NCBI GenBank assembly: GCA_013265495.1
Contig: MU058039.1
Location: 932,591-996,590, forward strand
DNA from: Vicugna vicugna
Lineage: Eukaryota
Length of the DNA stretch: 64,000 nucleotides
Direction of reading: 5' to 3'
The number at the start of each line of letters is the position of its first letter. The first letter of the stretch is position 1. The notes under the pieces are model-generated. The model made no database searches. It was not told the origin of the DNA and worked only from the letters and a program-made list of their open reading frames with translations. A program made the translations under genes and the position numbers. Below are positions 42,658-59,900 of this stretch, piece after piece.

Positions 42658-42714
42658 CTAGGAATTCAGCTTGGAGGACTGGGTGGGTGGTGGGGCCGTT
42701 GCTGGGAGGGGAAC
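42658..42714 (-). other. RASGRP4: Ancestral terminal coding exon of RASGRP4 (VPLPATAPPPTQSSKLNS*), now downstream of a premature stop
   Basis: ttccag| acceptor, in frame with the exon-16 donor, ends in TAG; resembles the human C-terminus ...SSKLDS as recalled. Confidence 0.85.
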
Positions 42715-43177
42715 CTGGAAGGAAGAAGACATTGGGGGATGCGGGGAGTGTCCGATGTCCAGGAGTTTCACCCAGACTTGTTAAAGTGGATGGATGAATG
42801 TCCCCTGTGGATTTTTTTAAACTCAATCTGAGAGTCCCCACTTTTGAATAGCGGAGTTTATTCCACTATTTACTATATTCCTGATACATTTGGCCTAATT
42901 CTTGCCATCTTGTAGTTTTCTTTTTTTCTTCCTAAAATCCCTTTTTTGTTCTACTACTGGTTACATCTTCCCCCCAACATACTGAAATTTCTATTTTTCC
43001 ATCAACATTAAAAATGAACCAGTATCTATACTGTCTGACCCAAGCAACTGAAGACTCTTACATATTTTAACTTTCCTGTGCTGCCTCAAATCCGTCTGGG
43101 TTCCCCCAGGCAAGTGGGCTGGTCTCCCTGTATTCATTTGAGGGTAGGGGGCAGTTCCTCCTCACCGTCTCTGGTTC

Positions 43178-46100
43178 TCAGGAAGGATGGGGGTGCTTGA
43201 TCTGGGTCCAGTCATGGCGAACGTTGCATGTGGTCCCAGGTTCCAGAGATAGTGTGTAGGAGAGATTGTCCTCAGAGCCTGTTTGTGGGGATGTGGGGAT
43301 GAGAGAAAGGGCCTCATGACTTTGAAATTAACCTCCATCCAACAGGCCCCCTTCCCAGGACTGCTATACCCTGGGTCTTACCACAGCTGGCGTGGGGCAC
43401 TGGTGTGGGTGGGACAGGTGCTCCTGGGGGGCTCCCATCGCCCTTGGCCCCTGGCCTCTTCTTACACTTCACCTTCACTTGGTCTCTGCAGTGTTTGTGG
43501 CAACACAGCCCACAGTCTGGGGAAAATTCTGCAGTCAGTGCCGGAGACCCAGTCTGTGACCCCTGTTCTTCCAGCTTGTGGGTCCTGGATTCCCCACCTC
43601 CCCCAACAATGCCCCACTTACCCTGACAGCGGTAGCCTTGCTTGGTGACACCCCAGAGCTGGGAAGAGACAGCAGAATAGGTTACCTAGGCTGGAGGAGG
43701 TGGGGCTGGGGTTGGGGTGGGGTTGCAGGCTGTCTGAAAGTGTGGAAACCATCCAGGTTTTGGAAATTGTCAAGGCTAGAGGCTTATGTGGGATCTGGGA
43801 GATTAGAGGAATTTGGAGGTTATCTCAAGTTTGGAGAAGTCATCTACAATATTAGAAATGGGTAAGATTGGAATAAATAAAACATACATCCTATGGGCAG
43901 GGATTACATTTTCTGTTTCCTGCTGTGCTCCCCGAGCCTAGAACTGTGCCTGGCCCACAGGAGATGCTCAGTCTATATTCAGTGAATGAAAAAGTGAGTC
44001 TGGGAAGTAATCCAAGGTTTGTGAATTAGTCTTGGTTTGACATTGAGAGATTTGTCCATTATTCTATTCTAGAGTTTGAGGAGACCTTGAATTTGGAAAT
44101 TATTCAGGGTCTGAATTATCTGGGGTCTAGAGACTTGGAGATTGATTCTGTCTGGAGATAATGTACCCAGGTTTGCAGATTATCCAGGGTTTGGCACTTA
44201 TCCAGGATGGAGACTGTCTGGGCTTTGGGCATTATCTGGACTTCAGAATTATCCAGGATGTAGGGAATAGCCAGTGTTTAGGGTTCCTGTGAAGTGGGGG
44301 CATTCTTTGAGACTGGAGAATCTTCTGGGATTTGGGAATTTTCTGGGACTTGGGGACTACAAGCACTCCAGGGCAGGGCTGGTTTTCTGAGCCCAGGCTG
44401 TGAGGAGTTAGGACGCCGCAGGGGGAGATGGGCCTTTGGGGTGATGGCAGGCAGAGTGCTCACGAAGCCACTGCAGCTGACACAGAAGGCGGGCTTGCGG
44501 AAGTTGACCTCCTGGAAGGCATGCAGGAAGTCCAGGCCCAGCTTGGAGCAGATGGCGCTGGCCTGGAGCAGGTATTCTGTCACCTCCTCTCGGCTGAAGG
44601 AGCCACTCCTGGGGGAGAGATGGAGCTTCAGCAGGACTGGCCTCTTTCTCCCGGCAACCCCAGTGCCTTGTCTTAAGGGAACCCAGGAGTCAGGGGCACC
44701 TACCCCTGGCGGAGGGGTGGGTGAAGCCCGTGGCAGGCGAAGGGGAAGTTGCCTGAGAGTCGCTCAAAGTCCTCCTGAGAGATGGTGCCTCGGCCTTCAG
44801 GGTCATAATTCTTGAACACGGACTTCGGAGGAGCATGGGAGGGGAAAGTAAGGCCAAGTCAGGGTCCCCACGGTCTGTCTGAGATCCCTCCTCGGGCCCA
44901 GGGCTCCTCCTCACCTCCACCAGCTTCTCCACATGCTGACCTAGAGTGACCCTGTCGGGCTTGGGTGTCACGCCAGGGGCCCACTCCACCACCAGGTGCG
45001 TCTTGAAGGGGGAGTGTGGCTGGGGCAGGGACACAGGGGCACAGTTAGTCAGTGCAGAGGCTTGGGCTGGAGGCCTCAGGTCAGGGGTGGGCTCTCACCA
45101 GACTCTTGGGATAGCGGGGCTCCCGGAGGTAAGAAAGCTCATAGATCTTGTCCTCTGTGTAGAAGAGATCCAGGGAAAGCTGCGGGCAGGCGGGGTGTTA
45201 CATCCCGGCTCCATCCTCCTACCTACAGCCTGTGCCTGCCTGGACCCCCACTCTGATCCTCCTCCCAAAGCCCTTCTTCTCTGGGACTCCTAGGGTCCTC
45301 TTTCCCACTGAGCCCCCATTCATTCTCCACACTTCTGGTCCCCTAGTCCAGAAATGACGTCTTCTCACTGAGGCTTTTTTGATCCTATTTAAAATCGCAC
45401 CCCCCCGTCACTTTCTATGCCTGTTTCTGCTTTAATTTTCCCTACAGCACTTATTATCTAAAAGACCATATGATTTACTTTTCTTTGTTCATTGGCTATC
45501 TGCCCCACTAGGAAGTCAGCCCCACGAGAGCAGCAATTTTTTTCTGATGTGCTCACTGCTGTGAGCCTAAGTGCCTCAAGGAGTGCCTGGCTCCCAGCAA
45601 GTGCTCAGTAAATATTTGGGCTGATGGCCATTTAGAGTCAGCAAGGCCAAGCACCTTAGGCATCAATCAGCTCAGGGCAGGGTCAGCTTCATGGGCAGGC
45701 CCCACACTTAGAAGGGCCCTGACTTCATTTATAGCCCTGCTGTCACCATTTTGAAATTCTAACTTTCAAACAAGGAGCCCCACATTTTCAGTTTGCAACT
45801 GATCCTGTTTTAGGATCTGAAAAATCAGCTTTTCAATCTTAGATTACATGGACTGCAGAATCCAGTGTCTCTCAATTTATAGCTCCTCAGAATGGAAAAA
45901 AAATATGTAAAATAAAATACAGCCAGAATTCCACACTCCTAGTCTTAGAACATAGTGTGGTGGTTAACACAGGCTAACATTCATGGTCTGAAACTGGCCT
46001 GCTGTGGGACAGAGGGCAAGTGACCTTACCTCCGTGGGCCTCAGTTTTCCAATCTGTAGAATGGGTATGATAAGGTTCCCCTCGTCATAGGGCTGCGAGG

Positions 46101-49100
46101 ATGGAATGAAGTGCTCTGTGGGGACTGTTTAACATGATGCCTAGCACATAGTAAGTGATCAATAATTGTTATTAGCTTTTTGCTTAGATTCCTGGATATG
46201 TTAAAGGTTGGAATTTTGGACTAGTCGCATAAGAAGCTCAGAACTTTGAGTTCAGGAGTGCAAAAGCTAGAAGCAATTCTGGAGCTCAGATCAATGGATA
46301 CTTGAGCTGCTGGGGAAGTGGGGGAAAATGCATCACTTATATAGAGCTCACTGTGTTCCAGATACTATTTTAGGTACTTTATATGAATTATATGAGTTAT
46401 GTTTATATTATATCATTGATTCTTTTCAACCACTCTCTGAAGTGGGTCCTTTTAGTCTTCCCATTTTGCAGTTAAGGAAACTGAGGCTGACGAGTTAAGT
46501 GACTTGCCCAAGGCCACAAAGGGAAAAAAAAAAAACCCGACCCAGTTAGAAGTTCTAGCTTCAAAGCCCATGCATTCCAGTGCTGTTCTACTACTCTGTC
46601 CTGGCCCTGCAGATCCTCACCCACCCAGGACCCTAAATCTCAGTATCCTGCAGGCTCAGGCTCTGGGAACCCAGCCTGGGCAGCTCAGGGCAGCTCACCG
46701 TTAGCAGATGCAGCAGGTCCTCGTTGGCACTGCAGGGGGGCTGTTGCCTCTGGAGGGCTGCCAGCTCCTGCAGCCGCAAGTAGAGGCTGTTGAGCTTCAG
46801 AAGGTGCAGGCGGCCGTCAGGCAACCTGTCTGGATGTGCCTCGTGCAGGGACACCAGGTCCTTGAGGTGCACACCCAGTAGAGGCAGCCGGAAGCCCGTG
46901 CAGCCAGCCCAGGCGCGGCGGTAACAGGCGTAGTTGTTGCGGGAGGCAAGGAGCTCAGTCAGCTCGAGCAGGGCCTGTGAGGGAGAGGCGTGTTACAGTA
47001 AGGGGTCATGTAATGGGGAAGCCAGTTTTCCCCCTAGCTCTCTGCAGGGGAGCATCCCAGCAGCCTCCTGTGTGGGCTCCAGACCCCCAGGACCCAATGG
47101 CATTTTGGATACCTCCCAGATCCCCTCCAGAGTCCCACGTTGGCTTCAGTATCTCCCTAGACTGCTCTTCTTCTTGGGCCCCCATCTGAGAAAGGCCTCA
47201 CTATGTTCCATTTCCCAGGCTAGAGTGACTTTTTCAAAAACCCCAGTCTGATCAGGGGTGCTGTCATCATTCCCAAAGCTTTACCCATTGCCCTCTGGAT
47301 AAAGCCCAGACACCTTAGTTAAGCTTGCAGAAGGCTCAACAGGATTTCCCCTGGGTATCTTCAGCCTAATATCCTGCCACATCCTGACCTCAGCTGCACA
47401 CCAGACTCCTGAATGACTTACTCTCCCTAGACCCTTTCAGGACACCTCCAATCCATGCTCCTCCTATGGGTGGCCCAAATATCAGTGCCCCTGGGGGCAT
47501 CATCTCACTCCCCACCTAGACTGCAAGTTCTCTGCTAGCATCTCTCCTGTCTCCCTCCACTCCTGCTCAGGATCAGATACTGAGCATAGAGGGGTCAGCA
47601 CCATGTCAGATTTGGAGGAGCCAGGTCTCCAGGTGGCTCCAGGGTGGAGGGGATTGGGGAGACGTGTGGAGGTTCAGGATAATTGACTGCTGGAACTTTG
47701 GGGAGGGCAGTGGGGTTTCACCTTGGTGCTGTCAGGGCTCAGGTGGGCGTGGGAGTCCTTGAGTCTGGAGATGGCACTGTGACATAGGCCCCCAGTGACT
47801 GCCATCAGCGTGTTGAAATTCTGCAGCTGGTGGAGCCTCTAGAAAGGGAGGGTGATGCAGAGGTGGTGGGTATCATGTGGAGGACAGGCAATGTGGAGAT
47901 TCAAATGACAGCATCCCTGTTGAGTTGGGGTCTCAGGCATGTGTGTGGGTGGCCCAATGTAGGCATTCGACAGGTGAGATGTATCAGGCAGGAGTGGGCT
48001 AAAGGCAGGTATGTGGGCATTTCATGGGGGGTCAGGCAGGTGATAGACTAATGAGAGGTTGGATAACAGTAGGGGGAGTCAGGTCAGTATGGGGAGTTGG
48101 ACAGGTTTGGGGACCGACAGTTCTGTGCTAGACAGCTGTGGAGGATTCAGACAGATATCAGTGTGTCGGGCACCTGGGTGGGGGGTGAGGTGTGGGTGTC
48201 CCTGCTCTGAGAGTCAGACAGGTAAGGGAGACAAGAAGGCTTGGGCTCTGGGCAGGAGTTGGGAACAGGGCGGAGGTGAATGGGTCCAGAGTGATATGGA
48301 GGGGTCAGGCGTACATGAGAGACAGTTGTGGGGTCAGGCTGTCATCAGGGGCGATAGCCTCACTTTCCCTTTTCTCAAGTTTGAAGGGTGGAGGTCGCTG
48401 AGGGGAAAAGGTGGGGCCAGAGAAGAGTGGAAGATGCTCAGATCGAGGAGCCTCCGGGCAGACGCCAGAAGCCCCTGGTCTAAAGGGCCGGGCAGGGGAA
48501 GCGCCAAAGGAAGGGCGTGGTCTGTGAGGAAGTACGCTAAGGGGCGTGGCCACTCTGGGGGAAGGAGGGCTTCCCTTTTCTCCAGAAGGCGGGGAATGTA
48601 TCTCGAAGAGAGGGGGAAGGGAGGGGAGGGGTCAGAGGAGACCTGAAGTGATAGGGACGGCTGGGGCCTAGGGACCCCGGTAGGGCATAACTCAAAGGTG
48701 AGGGTATGAAAGGGCCTCTTCCTTTACTGCCCTGGAGATGGAATATTCGGGCACGGGGCTTAGGTACGAGGCCAGGAGGAAAGTCGTCTAGGACCAAGGG
48801 GTGGGACCAGGGCGGTTTTGACGGGATGAAATAAGGCCATGGAAGAAGTGCCGTCACAGTCCCTGGTTAGAACCGCCGGACTGAGTCCTCGGGGACCCGG
48901 GCAGGTGAGACGTGATGCGAGAGGGCGGGGCCAGGAGGTAGTGACGTCACCTCCGGGGAGATCAGGCGCGGCGGGAGAGCGCAGGGTCAAGGTCAGCTTC
49001 TCCCAGCCTGGTTCGGCGAGTGCTCAGAGAGCGAGCCGAGCTTTGGGGCACGTCTCACCTGTGCCACGTGGATGAACTTCTCCAGCACCTGAGCGCGCTG

Positions 49101-52100
49101 TGCGGGCCCGGGACGGCTCAGCACCATGACCTGCACCCAGCGGGACACGCTGTTGCTGAGACCTACGGAACCCTCCAGGGCCGGACAACCCCGCACGGAA
49201 CCCTGCAAAACGTAGCCCCGCAGGTCCTGGGGCTGGGGGTGAGGTGGGCTTTAGGGTAGGTCGTGGCGCTCAGGTCCTGGCCCCCACACGCCCATCTCCC
49301 AAGCAGTCAAGACCTCTGACGTCTTAGCCTGGCTGTCACATGTCTGTGAGGTCACCATGTCCCTCTCCCATCTGAGGAGAAATGTTTGAAGAAACCCAGG
49401 CACTAGTCTGAGCCCTTTGTTATATCCTGACAACAACTCTATGAAGTGAATACTATATTATTACCATTTTAGAAATGAGGTCGTTGAAGCACAGAGAGGC
49501 CAAATAATTTCCCCAGGGTCACACAGGCCTGAGTCAGGGTAGGAACCCAGTCTGTTGCTCTTGGCTGTATTCCTGACTGTATACAGTCAGCAAAGGGAGG
49601 GGCAGTGAAGAGGAAAAGAAACCAACTTCTATTTGTTCTGCTTAAGGGGTCAACGTTCCATACCCACATCCACTGCACTCTGTGTGTGTCTGTACAATTG
49701 GGAAATTTTCACATTAAGGAACCAGATGGGGGGTGGAGGGTGGGAAGGGATAGACCAGGATTTCAAAATTGTAGAATAGATAAACAAGATTATACTGTAT
49801 AGCACAGGGAGATATACACAAAATGTTATGGTAGCTCACAGAGAAAAAAATGTGACAATGAGTGTGTATATGTCCATGTATGACTGAAAAATTGTGCTGA
49901 ACACTGGAATTTGACACATCGTAAAATGATTTAAATCAATAAAAATGTTAAAAAAAAAAAAGGAACCAGATCCCTAACAACCCTCAAAATAATTATGACA
50001 AGATGGCAATTGCTAAACACATATATAGGTTGAAGCATTTGAAATTAAGATTTGGGAAATATGGCAAAATATCACAGTTTCAAATGGTGCAACTAGATCA
50101 TATTTACTCTGGACCAGGCACTGATCCTATGAGGCAGGAGCTAAGTCTCCTTTTTGCAGATAACAGAGCTGAGGTACAGTGAATTTCAATGCTTCTCAAA
50201 TAAATGAGTAATAATAAAATATTTTGAGCACTACTATGTGCCAGGCACTGTGATAAGGATTTTTATGTGGACATATTAATTTAATTCCCCCAACCACCCA
50301 ATGAAGTATTTGACCTCCTTTTTACAAACGAGAAAACTGCGCCCCAGAGAGGTTGAGAAACTAGTTCAAAGTTACACAGATAGGAAGGAGCTGATGGGAT
50401 TTGAACCCAGGGGCTCTGTGCTCAGCCAGCCTAACTCTTTTTCCTGGACCCTCTAGCACCCAAGTCTGAGAGTTTGTGATCCCTGCCCAGGCCAGGGTCC
50501 TCTCAGTCTGGCTTGGCCCCAGCCAGGTTCCATCCCACCCCAAGCCCTCCCCAGTGTAGAGGAGAGGGGTCCTTACTGTGATAGCCTGGAAGGACCGGAA
50601 CTCCAGGTAAGTTAGGTGCTCTGCCAGTTCTCCCGTCTCCAGGTGATCAAAAAGCAAGGACACTTTGCGCTTTTTGCCCAGGCCTGGGCTGCTCACAGGG
50701 GGTGGGGGGCCAGGGCCACCCGGGCTCAGCCTAGGGGTCAGGAGGGGCAGGGTATTGGAGGGTCTCAGGGTGGAGGGTGTGGGGGTGTGGAGGGAGGAGG
50801 CAGAGTTGGGGTGGGGAGGGAAGGAGAAGGGGCTGACTCACAGGTTAGAGAAGTCTCCCAGGATCCTCTGGGCTGAGTTGCCCTCCTGCTCCACGGTGGC
50901 CCAGAAGCGACCTATGACCTCTTCTAACTGGGGCTCCTGGTGCACCATCTCAGGGTGTTGGGTCAGCCAGTACCTGACGGAGGTTTAGAGATGATGGGAT
51001 GAGGCTGGGGGTGTGGCAGTTCTCTGAAAGGGGTCTCTTGGGCTGAGGGGTCTCTAGGTGCTGGGCAAGGGGGTCTCTAACTGTGAGCAGGGGTTTCTTT
51101 GAAAGTCCAGAGTTCAGACAGAAGGGAGAGTCTCTGGGAGTAGGATTGGGGGCCTCTTAACACAGGCTGAAGGATCTGTGGAAGATAGACTGGGGGGTCT
51201 CTTGGAAGTGGGGTGCCTAGGGAGCTGGCTAGTGGGTGGTCTCAGGAATTAGATTGGGGGCCTTTGTGGGTGAGATTTGTGGGGAACAGGGTGAGGGGTC
51301 TTAGAAGCTAAGCTGAGGTATATGGGAGGTGAGGGTCTTAGGGATCAGAGCTGGAGGTCTCAGCGTACCAGCTGGAAGAGAGCCCAGAGGATCTGGTCAG
51401 GGGTCTCTAAGAGGTGAGGGTTCTAAGGAGACTGGGAGGGTTTTAGGAACCAACCCAGGTGGGTATGAGAAGTAGGATTTGGGGGAGCATGGCTGGGTGG
51501 ATCTGTAGGGAACTGGGCTGGAGTCTCTTGGAAGTGTTTTTCAGGGGGCAGTAGGGTGAGGCTCTTGGGTCATGGAGTGGAGGTTTTGACCCAGCCTTAC
51601 CGGACCAGGTGACAGATCTGCAGCCTCCTCAGCTCCTGCGTGTTCCCTGTGGCCTCCTGGTACTTGAGTTCTGGTCAAGGCTCTGTTATCCAGCATCCCA
51701 GACCTGTTGGCTCCTCTGTCCCCATCTCCCAGGCTCCCACATCTCTGCCTTCCACCCTCTACCCCCTGCTTATGGCCCCAGGAGGATATAAGGTCAGCAG
51801 ACGGGCAGCAAGATGGGCAGAAGGCAGTACCCAGCTGTGCATGGCCAGTACCATGTTGAGAATGTGGTCCCCGCGGCGCAGGCTGCCAGCTGAGTCTGAG
51901 GGCAGGGGAAGGGGACTGTGTGTCAGAATAGCCCCTAAGCAATGGACTGCATAGCTTTCAGAGCCAGGTGGACCGCCTCGTTCAAACCCCAGCCCTACCA
52001 GTGACTCCCTACATGAATTTGGGCCAACAAATTGACTCCTTGTGCCTCAGTTTCCTTGTGAATAGTGTGTGTGCATGGACCAGCATTATGCCTGGCAAGT

Positions 52101-54912
52101 CATATTGAAGATGGAAATAGCATCAGACTTCCTCCCCCACCCACAGCTCAGGAAAAAGAAATGCAGGTGTCTCTCTTATTCCTAATGTAGTGATTGAGAT
52201 TCATTCCACACACTCCTGCTCCCATGTTATACCCCTCCTCCCAAATTGAGGCGTGAAGGGAGGTGGGTACTTGGCCCAACCTTACCATTGCAGAGACAAG
52301 CCAAGGAGGAGGACACTCACCAAAGGACTGAATGCATTTCTCCAGCAGCTCATCTTCGCTGCAGCCGCCCTCATTCAGCACGCCCAGAGCCATGGAAGAC
52401 ATGACCTTGCTGATTTCCCGGGGGCTGGGGCATGTCTTGTGGCGGCGGGCTTGTCGGGCCCGTCCCCGCCCCCCTATCTTCTCTGGGCATTCCTGGTGGG
52501 ACTTCCTGTGGGCACATCCCCCAGGGAATCATGGGAGCCCCTTCCTTTGGGCAGACCCCCAGAATTCTTGACCCCAAAGCCCCAAAGCTTCGTGGGAGAA
52601 ACTTCCTAAAGATAAGGTCCTAGGGTTAGTCCTGACCTACCCTGGATTCAGGAGAGAAAACCCCAGGAATATTCCAGATCATTCCAGCCTTCTCCTACAA
52701 ATAAACTCCAAGGGTTACTCCTGCCCTCTTCAGGGAATCAGGGGACAGTACCCTCAATACCTAATTGACAGCCCCCCCAACCAGGGAATCATGGGAGATG
52801 ATCCCCAGGACTACTAAGGTTCCTTCAGGGAATCATAAGAACTCCCTCCTCCAGGCATTGCCCTCCAAGTCCCCTTGACAGTATGGTCCCAGGGCATCAT
52901 GGGAGACGGGTTACTCCTGACCTCCAAGGGAATCATGGGAGAAGACCCCCCAGAATCATTCCTGTCCTCCCCAGGAGGAATCATGGGTGGTTCTGCCTTC
53001 AGGAACACTCCTCAGAATACCCTTTTCTCTCCAACACCCACCCCCTCCTCCCCCAGCCCTCATGAGAGAAGCAGACCCCTGAGATTCCATCTCTCCCTCC
53101 CCCACCTCGACCCTGACTAAGCTGACAGACCCTTCCCACAAGTCAGCCTTTCAGCAGGACCCGTGTCTCAGCCGTAAGCCTGGTCTCTAGATTTGGAGCC
53201 TGGAGAGAAGATACAGGTGTAACGTGGCCTCAGCAAGGCTCTTCAGAGCTGGGCGGGTCCCTGGGGCTGAGGCAGCTTCAAGGAAAGTTTAAAAATAAAC
53301 CTTACTCTGTCTTGTGCCTGCCCGAGGCTCCTGTTCCAGTTGGGGAAAGAGAGTAATAGAAAGACAGGGATGGTGGAGGAAGGAGGGAGCAAAATCCAGG
53401 CAGGATGGCCCTGGCTTCCACAAGAGTCAGACAAAACCAAGTTGGAGACACTTATGCTGGCTGTGTGACTTTGTGTTAATCACAACATTTCTCTGGACCT
53501 CAGTTTCCTTGTATGAAAAGTGAGAGTCATCCTTGGACCTTCCCCAGGAATTTATTATGAACATTCAATGCCTTGCTCTTCAAAAGTGCTAAATAAGGGA
53601 TTTAATTTGCTTAGGCTGTTAAGTGGCCAGAGGTGGGAAAGTTAAACTTGAGATGCAGAGAGAGAATGTGATAGAGTGAACTAGAAGCCAGGCCGGGGGC
53701 ATGGAGGTGAGCCCTCATAACAAGGCATTGCCATGTCCCTGGCACATCCTAAAAGCTCAGTAAATCAGTATTCTTATTTCTATTTTTTTTTTCAGTAAAT
53801 CAGTATTGAATGTTGCCAAGTAACAGCTGGCATTCATTGAGTGCTGACTGTTTACCGAGCAGACGGCTGAGCACCTATCTAGATCAGTGGTTCTCAAAGC
53901 AGGGTCTCCAACCAATACCAAGGGCATCACCCGGGAACCTGATATAAATACAAAATCTCAGGCTCCACCCCAGACCTACAGAATCAGAAACGTTGGAGGT
54001 GAGCCCAGCAGCCTGTGTTTTACAAGCCCTCCAAGTGGTTCTGATGTTTGCTTACACTTGAGAAGTAGAGGTCTAGACTGTACCACTGGGGCTTATGTGC
54101 TCCACCAAGGAGGCATTATGATCATTCTATTGACAGAAGAAACTGAGGCACAGAGCAGTTAAGTGACTTAACTATGGTTACACAGCTGGAAAATGAGGCA
54201 ATCTGGTCTCCACCGCTAAACTCCTGGACATGATGGGTATGGGACCCTTTGCTCATCAGAGATCCTGGGGGTGGGCAGAAGGGCTACCCAGGCTAGGAAT
54301 CCAGCCACCATCGCCCCTGTGAGGACAGGAGGGCAAGCTTGTGCAGGTGATAGGGAAGTCTATTCTAGAACATGCTGGCATAGCCAGCTGCTAGGATCTT
54401 ACCTGAGGACTGTCTGCCCAGGAGTAGTTTAAGAGGCAAGGGAGCCGCCTTGCCCTGCGTCACTCCCCGCCCCGCCCCCCCCCCCCCCCACCCCCGGGCA
54501 GGGCCCTGCAGGAGTCTGGAGTTTCCAGTCCAGGGGACAGCAAGTGACTGTGATAGGGAACCAAGAAGACCCCAGGAAGGACAGAGACCCCCAGCCTAGA
54601 GAGTTAGGATGAGGCGGGGGGGAGGGGCGGCGGCACAAGGAGAATGGGATCAGAGCAGCTCCAGCTCCAGAGATAGTGAGGATAAGACACACCCCATGCA
54701 GACAGCCCCAGCCCTAGCTGGCTCTGGACCCCTTGAAGCATCTTTCCACCTGGCACCCCCTGCTCCTGCTGCTGCTCCAGAGTGTAGCGGGACACCTTAC
54801 GCGCTGGTTAGTACCTCCCGAATCTTCCCATGCAGCCAGAGACCCCGGGGCTTGGGACGCTCCTGGTCCTTTGGGGAGGGTCCTCTCACCTCTTGCTGTC
54901 TTTCCGGTTCAT
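43178..54912 (-). CDS. RASGRP4: RAS guanyl-releasing protein 4; 650 aa here because of an in-frame TGA in exon 16 (673 codons if read through into exon 17 at 42714-42658)
   Basis: Exons 54912-54890, 52505-52321, 51895-51790, 51663-51601, 50973-50842, 50730-50577, 49232-49059, 47838-47722, 46974-46699, 45179-45099, 45019-44915, 44822-44704, 44608-44464, 43658-43622, 43516-43382, 43278-43166 (TGA 43180-43178). REM, CDC25 ([23 protein letters not shown]), EF-like and C1 ([23 protein letters not shown]) domains. Confidence 0.95.
49728..49959 (+). mobile_element. Young 5'-truncated L1 with poly(A) tail and perfect 12-bp TSD
   Basis: TSD AAGGAACCAGAT at 49716-49727 and 49960-49971; TT|AAGG target site; L1 3'UTR text with AATAAA and an A-tail. 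Confidence 0.92.
51664..51789 (-). other. RASGRP4: U12-type (minor spliceosome) intron with AT-AA termini, RASGRP4 intron 3
   Basis: 5' splice site ATATCCTCC; branch site CCTTGAC at 51680-51674; only the ...CTCAA|GTACCAG junction keeps the frame (LLTL|YQEA). Confidence 0.88.
52521..52990. repeat. Dispersed repeat of CAGGGAATCATGGGAG in RASGRP4 intron 1
   Basis: Copies near 52522, 52731, 52782, 52826, 52890, 52926 and 52977. Confidence 0.85.
53885..54070. mobile_element. MER5A-like hAT DNA transposon fossil
   Basis: cagtggttctcaaag...aatctcaggctccaccccagacctacagaatcagaa...ttgagaa; flanked by atctagat/gtctagac. A second degenerate copy lies near 62870-63070. Confidence 0.8.
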
Positions 54913-59251: not shown

Positions 59252-59900
59252 TAAAATATAATTTTTAAAGGTTACTTTCCATTTACAGTTATTGCAAAAT
59301 ACTGGCTATCTTTACCATGTTGTACAATATACCCTTGAGTCTATCTTATACCCAATAGTTTGTGCTTCCCACTCCCTCACCCTTTTATTGCGCGCCACCC
59401 CCCATGCCAGTAACCACTAGTTTGTTTTCTATATCTGGGAGTCTGCTTCTTTTTTGTTATATTCATTAGTTTGTTGTATTTTTTAGATGCTGTAAGTGAT
59501 ATCACATAGTATCTGTCTTTCTCTGTCTGACTGTTTCACTTAGAATAATGCTCTCCAAGTCCACCCATGTTGCTGCAAAATTTTGCTCTTCTTATGGCTG
59601 AGTAGTATTCCATTGCATGTAAATACCACATCTTCTTTATCTAGTCATCTGTCAATGGACACTTAGATTGCTTCAGTATCTCGGTAATTGTAAATAATGC
59701 TGCTATGAACACTGAGGTGCATGTATCCTTTTGAAGTAGTGTTTTGGGGCTTTTTTTTTTTTTTTTTTTTTATTATTTTTTTGTGGTTTTTTTTTTTTTT
59801 TTTTTGATATATACCCAAGAGTGGAATTGCTGGGTCATATGGTAGTTCTATTTTTATTTTTTTGAGAAACCTCCATACTGTTTTCCACAGCAGCTGCACC
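59252..59900 (-). mobile_element. L1 3' fragment (ORF2 C-terminus plus 3'UTR) inserted in a MIR
   Basis: Translation [28 protein letters not shown]; near-perfect TSD tgtatcaatacagtttt (59235-59251) / tgtatcggtacagtttt (59901-59917). Confidence 0.9.

Follow-up and report, generated by a model that had tools for sequence, protein, structure and literature searches.

Anatomy and conservation of the AT-AA, U12-type intron 3 of RASGRP4 at a camelid locus, and the published evidence on its splicing

The window, a stretch of 64,000 nucleotides of Vicugna vicugna DNA, carries the RASGRP4 gene, which was modelled as follows.

42658..54912, minus strand: RASGRP4 gene; 17 exons modelled, with GT-AG termini at 15 introns and AT-AA termini at one; open reading frame of 650 codons

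The translated model was identical at every residue to alpaca XP_015104009.1 and differed by one to six residues from three other camelid records of 650 amino acids. The top match of exon 9 was human RasGRP4 (PDB 6AXG, E = 1.9e-48), with RasGRP1 and RasGRP2 matching far more poorly. Both this preference over RASGRP1 and RASGRP2 and the 17-exon structure were as expected of the RASGRP4 orthologue. On the plus strand, head to head with RASGRP4, a short coding exon with an ATG start runs from 60590 onward; we take it to be exon 1 of RYR1.

The AT-AA intron is intron 3 of the gene. Its elements and flanking exons are listed below.

51790..51895, minus strand: exon 3, 106 nt; its last 2 nt open the junction codon; corresponds to 6AXG chain residues 29-62
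51664..51789, minus strand: intron 3, U12-type AT-AA, 126 nt, phase 2
51783..51789, minus strand: U12 5' splice site ATATCCT (consensus RTATCCTTT, from the available text of PMC1635337)
51759..51761, minus strand: in-frame TAG within intron 3; with the intron retained, the reading frame ends after 114 codons
51674..51680, minus strand: U12 branch site CCTTGAC; the A at 51675 (position -12) is presumed to be the branch nucleotide
51664..51665, minus strand: AA 3' splice site; the junction can slide 0 nt to the left and 0 nt to the right
51601..51663, minus strand: exon 4, 63 nt; its first base, G, completes Leu105; from 51662 it corresponds to 6AXG chain residues 64-83

The intron starts ATATCCTCC at 51789 and ends CTCAA. 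The first seven bases of the donor fit the U12 consensus RTATCCT(TT), with a mismatch at +8 that also is present in human. The branch site fits the core of the consensus (TT)CCTTRAY and lacks the two leading T residues, and 11 nt follow the presumed branch A up to the end of the intron, which places that end within the 11-13 nt optimum. No clear polypyrimidine tract was seen (8 pyrimidines in the 15 positions from -18 to -4); such a tract was a weak discriminator in this gene, since 14 of its 15 U2 acceptors had 9-14 pyrimidines of 15 and the remaining one had six. A donor and a branch motif 40-150 nt apart occurred once in the 64-kb window compared to 0.165 times per shuffled window (200 shuffles), a result that is weak when taken alone; at a junction preset by protein colinearity, the joint chance of the motifs was approximately 2e-7 from base composition. 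The original prediction had given the coordinates, length, donor and AA terminus correctly, as well as the branch motif, whose A is at -12.

Elsewhere in the window, a perfect-looking GTATCCTTTT motif was found at 59723 on the plus strand, in AT-rich surroundings. It had no branch motif within 2.3 kb and was not taken as a U12 donor. The sequence around it is presumably a LINE-1-like fragment.

In the alignment to human RasGRP4 (6AXG), exactly one codon bridged exons 3 and 4, and this single junction codon, together with the U12 donor, requires the AA end. The earlier claim that the intron must end in AA was slightly too strong, since another AC at +15 also is in frame (at 26 nt from the branch A; its use would remove five residues) and GT-AG pairs that bypass the junction in frame exist on paper.

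51797..51851, minus strand: weak exonic GT sites at 51851, 51830 and 51802, which would allow in-frame GT-AG bypasses on paper

These GT sites matched the consensus at 4-5 of nine positions, compared to 5-8 of nine in all but one of the gene's 15 real GT donors. A TA-AG junction, which also yields Leu and the same protein, was dismissed because the U12 motifs fit AT-AA exactly; TA-AG is not, to our knowledge, among the known splice classes. Judged by its sequence, intron 3 is a U12-type, AT-AA (A-type, AT-AN) intron of RASGRP4 that keeps the reading frame.

Database proteins were compared at the exon 3/4 junction. All 15 members of the camelid protein cluster were colinear there, including a Logan protein of 605 amino acids from a 3.9-kb contig. 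This protein probably represents a spliced transcript, since its contig is 3.9 kb long and the gene spans 12 kb. Part of RASGRP4 also was contained in 19 of the 24 listed rows of public RNA runs, which is not evidence on splicing.

The wider homologue set consisted of the best 120 of 281 rows, each row being an isoform and not a species. Among these 120, 64 were colinear at the junction, including all six Homo sapiens rows, 51 showed another junction and five were without an exon. The database protein named variant 2 of human RASGRP4 was colinear at exon 3/4. In 39 of the 51 deviating rows the protein ran into the donor (Leu/Ser-Tyr-Pro), and in 16, from seven species, Lys preceded the exon-4 Tyr; six rows showed both features, and two others spliced from an upstream GT to +1. 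None of the best 120 of 281 rows had Thr before the exon-4 Tyr, the residue expected from an AC end. The rows with Lys fit a read-through of AA plus one purine and add indirect support for the AA end. The 51 deviating rows, which were mutually inconsistent and mostly read into the ends of the intron, clearly illustrate how AT-AA termini defeat gene predictors; mis-mapping at non-canonical sites was remarked on in Sheth 2006 (PMC1557818, available text).

It is extremely improbable that the AA represents a sequence error, or that the real junction is an in-frame GT-AG (U2) pair. Such pairs are present in the window and other junctions are annotated in the 51 rows, but these rows disagree with each other, the GT sites are weak, the 64 colinear rows include every Homo sapiens row in the set, and AA is present at this position in both human and mouse. 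The colinear human structure and the human cDNAs countered the in-frame GT-AG junction that the original prediction had named as its refutation.

The AT-AA intron 3 of RASGRP4 is already published, and the present locus adds one more mammal. In Sheth 2006 (PMC1557818, tables as available) RASGRP4 is given as AT-AA and conserved between human and mouse (Table 3), with three AT-AA U12 introns counted in human and four in mouse (Table 2). The human intron is hg38 chr19:38420971-38421094 in tables of PMC8280824 (available part) and PMC6717393, and the supplement of the former gives it as AT-AA and 124 nt, with AT-AC termini for the corresponding introns of RASGRP1, RASGRP2 and RASGRP3. The camelid and human introns share gene, position, termini and branch motif and differ in length (126 compared to 124 nt); the mouse Rasgrp4 intron, with the identical branch motif (PMC6717393), shares the 126-nt length as well. 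These tables and the colinear proteins bear out that the locus is an intron of RASGRP4 of U12 type with AT-AA ends, and they supply the comparison of termini with orthologues and paralogues that had been proposed. When compared by eye, the final 24 intron bases were the same in camelid and human. Exon 4, however, begins with G in the camelid and with A in human, and the junction codon is Leu in the former and Ser in the latter. Because of this G, the camelid, unlike human, has an AG at +1 and its junction is fixed in place.

The introns of RASGRP1-3 also are of U12 type, start with AT and have a Tyr codon straight after the junction base, but they differ in having AC ends, stronger and pyrimidine-rich branch sites, greater length and clear retention in ZRSR2-mutant marrow. 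Donor and branch scores were lowest for RASGRP4 among the four RASGRP paralogues (PMC8280824, available supplement). The position of the intron is conserved in human, mouse and RASGRP1-3, as judged from the published tables and the colinear proteins. The RASGRP4 intron belongs to the A-type (AT-AN) minor introns, for which an expression-limiting role, under a rate-limiting or molecular-switch model, is in print (available text of PMC8280824 and PMC3584512; see also PMC3728624). An exact 22-base scan of metagenome contigs for the ends of orthologous introns gave no matches. RASGRP genes were not mentioned in the available text of PMC1874599 and PMC11039992 or in the available supplement of PMC13135317. 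The available text of PMC13135317 named RASGRP4 once, apparently in a column of mutually exclusive exons and not under retention or alternative acceptors, and PMC11026523, as far as available, named it with the event type unstated. In the literature searched, from which subscription journals were mostly absent, no gene-specific test of RASGRP4 throttling was found, and no study devoted to this intron beyond the papers cited.

Retention of intron 5 is what we take to define variant 1 of human RASGRP4, a form that appears in the clone collection described below. Hashimoto 2011 (PMC3308084) reported 295 full-ORF RASGRP4 clones from human blood cells. According to its available text, the 80 clones from healthy donors comprised 62 normal clones, 16 that differed in exons 7-9 only and two of variant 1, so that intron 3 was correctly spliced in at least 78 of 80. 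Introns 11 and 14 were partly or fully retained in the same clone set, and among the 10 new variants described in the available text, from 295 human clones at steady state, there was neither an intron 3 event nor an isoform from the competing acceptors at its end. Mouse Rasgrp4 is expressed in marrow (23.7 TPM), spleen and thymus, and it was absent from the retention table and from the mouse alternative-splicing sheet among all eight supplementary files of PMC6717393.

A different result is given by the retention values in the available part of PMC8280824. In control human marrow the mean PSI of the RASGRP4 intron was 0.93, compared to 0.07, 0.08 and 0.15 for RASGRP1, RASGRP2 and RASGRP3, respectively. 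In ZRSR2-mutant marrow the three paralogues rose significantly (to 0.35, 0.48 and 0.33, respectively), whereas RASGRP4 moved from 0.93 to 0.95 (delta PSI 0.018, padj 1) from a saturated baseline. The same ZRSR2 table flagged an alternative-acceptor event for RASGRP2 and none for RASGRP4. Nine other AT-AA rows had control PSI values of 0.05-0.55; the 93% value therefore is not a general effect of AT-AA termini. In CENATAC-mutant lymphoblasts the PSI of RASGRP4 went from 0.29 to 0.94, a change that came from very low counts and was not significant (baseMean 5.9, padj 0.59).

These values would suit a retention bottleneck, in which the weak donor, the branch site and the AA end slow the removal of intron 3, most myeloid RASGRP4 pre-mRNA stays unspliced, and output tracks how active the minor spliceosome is (CENATAC, U6atac). 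Such a bottleneck is unlikely. It would agree with the marrow and lymphoblast figures, with the higher basal retention reported for the AT-AN class, 92% of which responds to CENATAC loss, and with the rate-limiting model for minor introns (PMC3584512, available text). Against it, the mouse intron is not retained (PMC6717393), and at least 78 of the 80 healthy-donor clones were spliced at intron 3, with retention recorded at introns 11 and 14 in that clone set. A retention of 93% in blood cells is contradicted by these clone data.

The human junction itself offers another source for the high value. By eye, the first four bases are ATAT in the human intron and ATAC in human exon 4, so that aligners can slide the gap by 3 nt. 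In a second pipeline, 100% of the spliced reads from human marrow and spleen were scored as having both ends displaced jointly (CAT6 + CAT7, PMC6717393), as would be expected of a slid junction; the same pattern was recorded in all tissues at many further minor introns. Reads placed on a slid junction would reach into the annotated intron and, to judge from the available description of IntEREst (PMC5896110), could be counted by it as retained. The 93% retention of human RASGRP4 intron 3 is probably a mapping artefact specific to this junction, and the 100% cryptic splicing is probably a 3-nt slide of the junction.

If the human-marrow retention of 93% were real instead, RASGRP4, alone of the four RASGRP genes, would have kept a deliberately poor U12 intron, with a weak branch site and an AA end, across placental mammals; an unspliced myeloid pool would be released by minor-spliceosome activity, and the camelid G at exon position +1 would add an AT-AG leak within the optimal branch distance. 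We regard this extended proposal as decidedly unlikely.

The original prediction had placed the limit on expression elsewhere, in splice acceptors that compete with the AA end. The AG at +1, AC at +4 and CAG at +7 that it listed were all present and all shift the frame; its list was correct for the downstream ends and incomplete, since a frameshifting AC at -4 and CAG at -7 lie upstream.

51657..51664, minus strand: candidate out-of-frame ends AG (+1), AC (+4) and CAG (+7), 12, 15 and 18 nt past the branch A
51668..51673, minus strand: candidate out-of-frame upstream ends CAG (-7) and AC (-4), 4 and 7 nt past the branch A

Use of the +1, +4 or +7 end would shift the frame and bring a stop after 113-115 codons. 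When the -4 and -7 ends and retention are included, the reading frame is over after 113-135 codons, and each of these stops precedes the last junction by more than 1,500 nt. As a background, frameshifting AG or AC dinucleotides within 7 nt were counted across 12 exons of RASGRP4, at 532 positions of matching phase. One or more were present at 92% of positions, two at 43% and three at 7%, so the +1/+4/+7 triple is mildly uncommon. The AG and AC dinucleotides near the junction are by-products of the Leu-Tyr-Gln codons, the AC at +4 and the CAG at +7 coming from Tyr-Gln.

For these sites to act as a throttle, the minor spliceosome would often have to take the +1, +4 or +7 end, NMD would destroy the products, and the resulting ZRSR2-sensitive limit on RASGRP4 would have been selected. 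The existence of the competitors and the position of the early stops are compatible with this, as are reports that the choice of U12 3' splice sites is error-prone (PMC3584512, available text) and shifts upon RBM41 loss. Conservation of the competing sites across species was not found, however. Human exon 4, starting with A, has no AG at +1; the dromedary has Tyr-Lys, and the CAG at +7 thus is not kept even among camelids; and the AC at +4 is part of the Tyr codon and also follows the canonical AT-AC intron of RASGRP2. The +4 and +7 ends lie past the optimal distance from the branch A, competitors are near-universal in coding sequence by the background count, no isoform from these acceptors is described among the 295 clones, and the ZRSR2 table flags no alternative-acceptor event for RASGRP4. 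The predicted sensitivity to ZRSR2 is contested: a review (PMC9405558, available text) lists RASGRP1, RASGRP2 and RASGRP4 as mis-spliced in ZRSR2-mutant MDS, but in the re-analysis of those data in PMC8280824 RASGRP4 stayed flat while RASGRP1-3 rose. The clone and tissue data limit the throttle without disposing of it, since they reflect steady-state RNA without an NMD block. Taken together, a throttle by competing acceptors is highly improbable.

The explanation that we favour, and consider likely, is that of a conserved U12 intron whose AA end is set by distance and whose slips are ordinary noise of minor splicing. Intron 3 of RASGRP4 would be old and conserved, with a last base that drifted from C, as in RASGRP1-3, to A; the direction of this change is suggested by the AC ends of three of the four paralogues. 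U11 would read ATATCCT and U12 would pair with CCTTGAC, and the 3' end would be fixed mainly by its distance from the branch site. The available text of PMC3584512 gives an optimum of 11-13 nt for this distance and describes AT-AG as disfavoured, and that of PMC1635337 describes the last base of U12 introns that start with AT as tolerant of change. Given the distance rule and the tolerance of any last base after an AT start, AA would be used and the frame preserved. Slips to a neighbouring AG or AC, or retention, would lead to an early stop and probably be cleared by NMD, presumably at a small loss. The anatomy, frame, orthology and colinear proteins behind this explanation were observed at the locus, and the class, the conservation and the distance rule come from the literature.

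Counting against this distance-based explanation are the PSI of 0.93 in control human marrow, the donor and branch scores of RASGRP4, which are the lowest of the four, the rarity of triple competitors in the background and the position of the camelid AG at +1, 12 nt past the branch A. Some leak to this AG is plausible, since it lies within the optimal branch distance.

The AT-AA site misled gene predictors in 51 of the best 120 of 281 rows and probably misleads read mappers too; for this reason the published values for retention and cryptic splicing of human RASGRP4 need to be re-checked. With sliding excluded at the camelid junction, RNA reads from camelids would provide a clean test of whether the AT-AA intron is slow or error-prone. 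A strong bottleneck, if true, would connect a Ras activator of myeloid cells with the working of the minor spliceosome.

Two further observations were made in the RASGRP4 model. The acceptor of exon 12 (44823-44825, minus strand) is a U2 site that ends AAG instead of YAG; a human RASGRP4 variant without the first 12 nt of exon 12 is described in the available text of PMC3308084. In exon 16 (43180-43178, minus strand), codon 651 is TGA where most other mammalian rows have Trp. This stop removes 23 C-terminal residues and should escape NMD, since the last junction lies 12 nt downstream. The same TGA ends 14 of the 15 members of the camelid cluster (alpaca, dromedary, and wild and Bactrian camel), and the truncation is common to camelids and already annotated.
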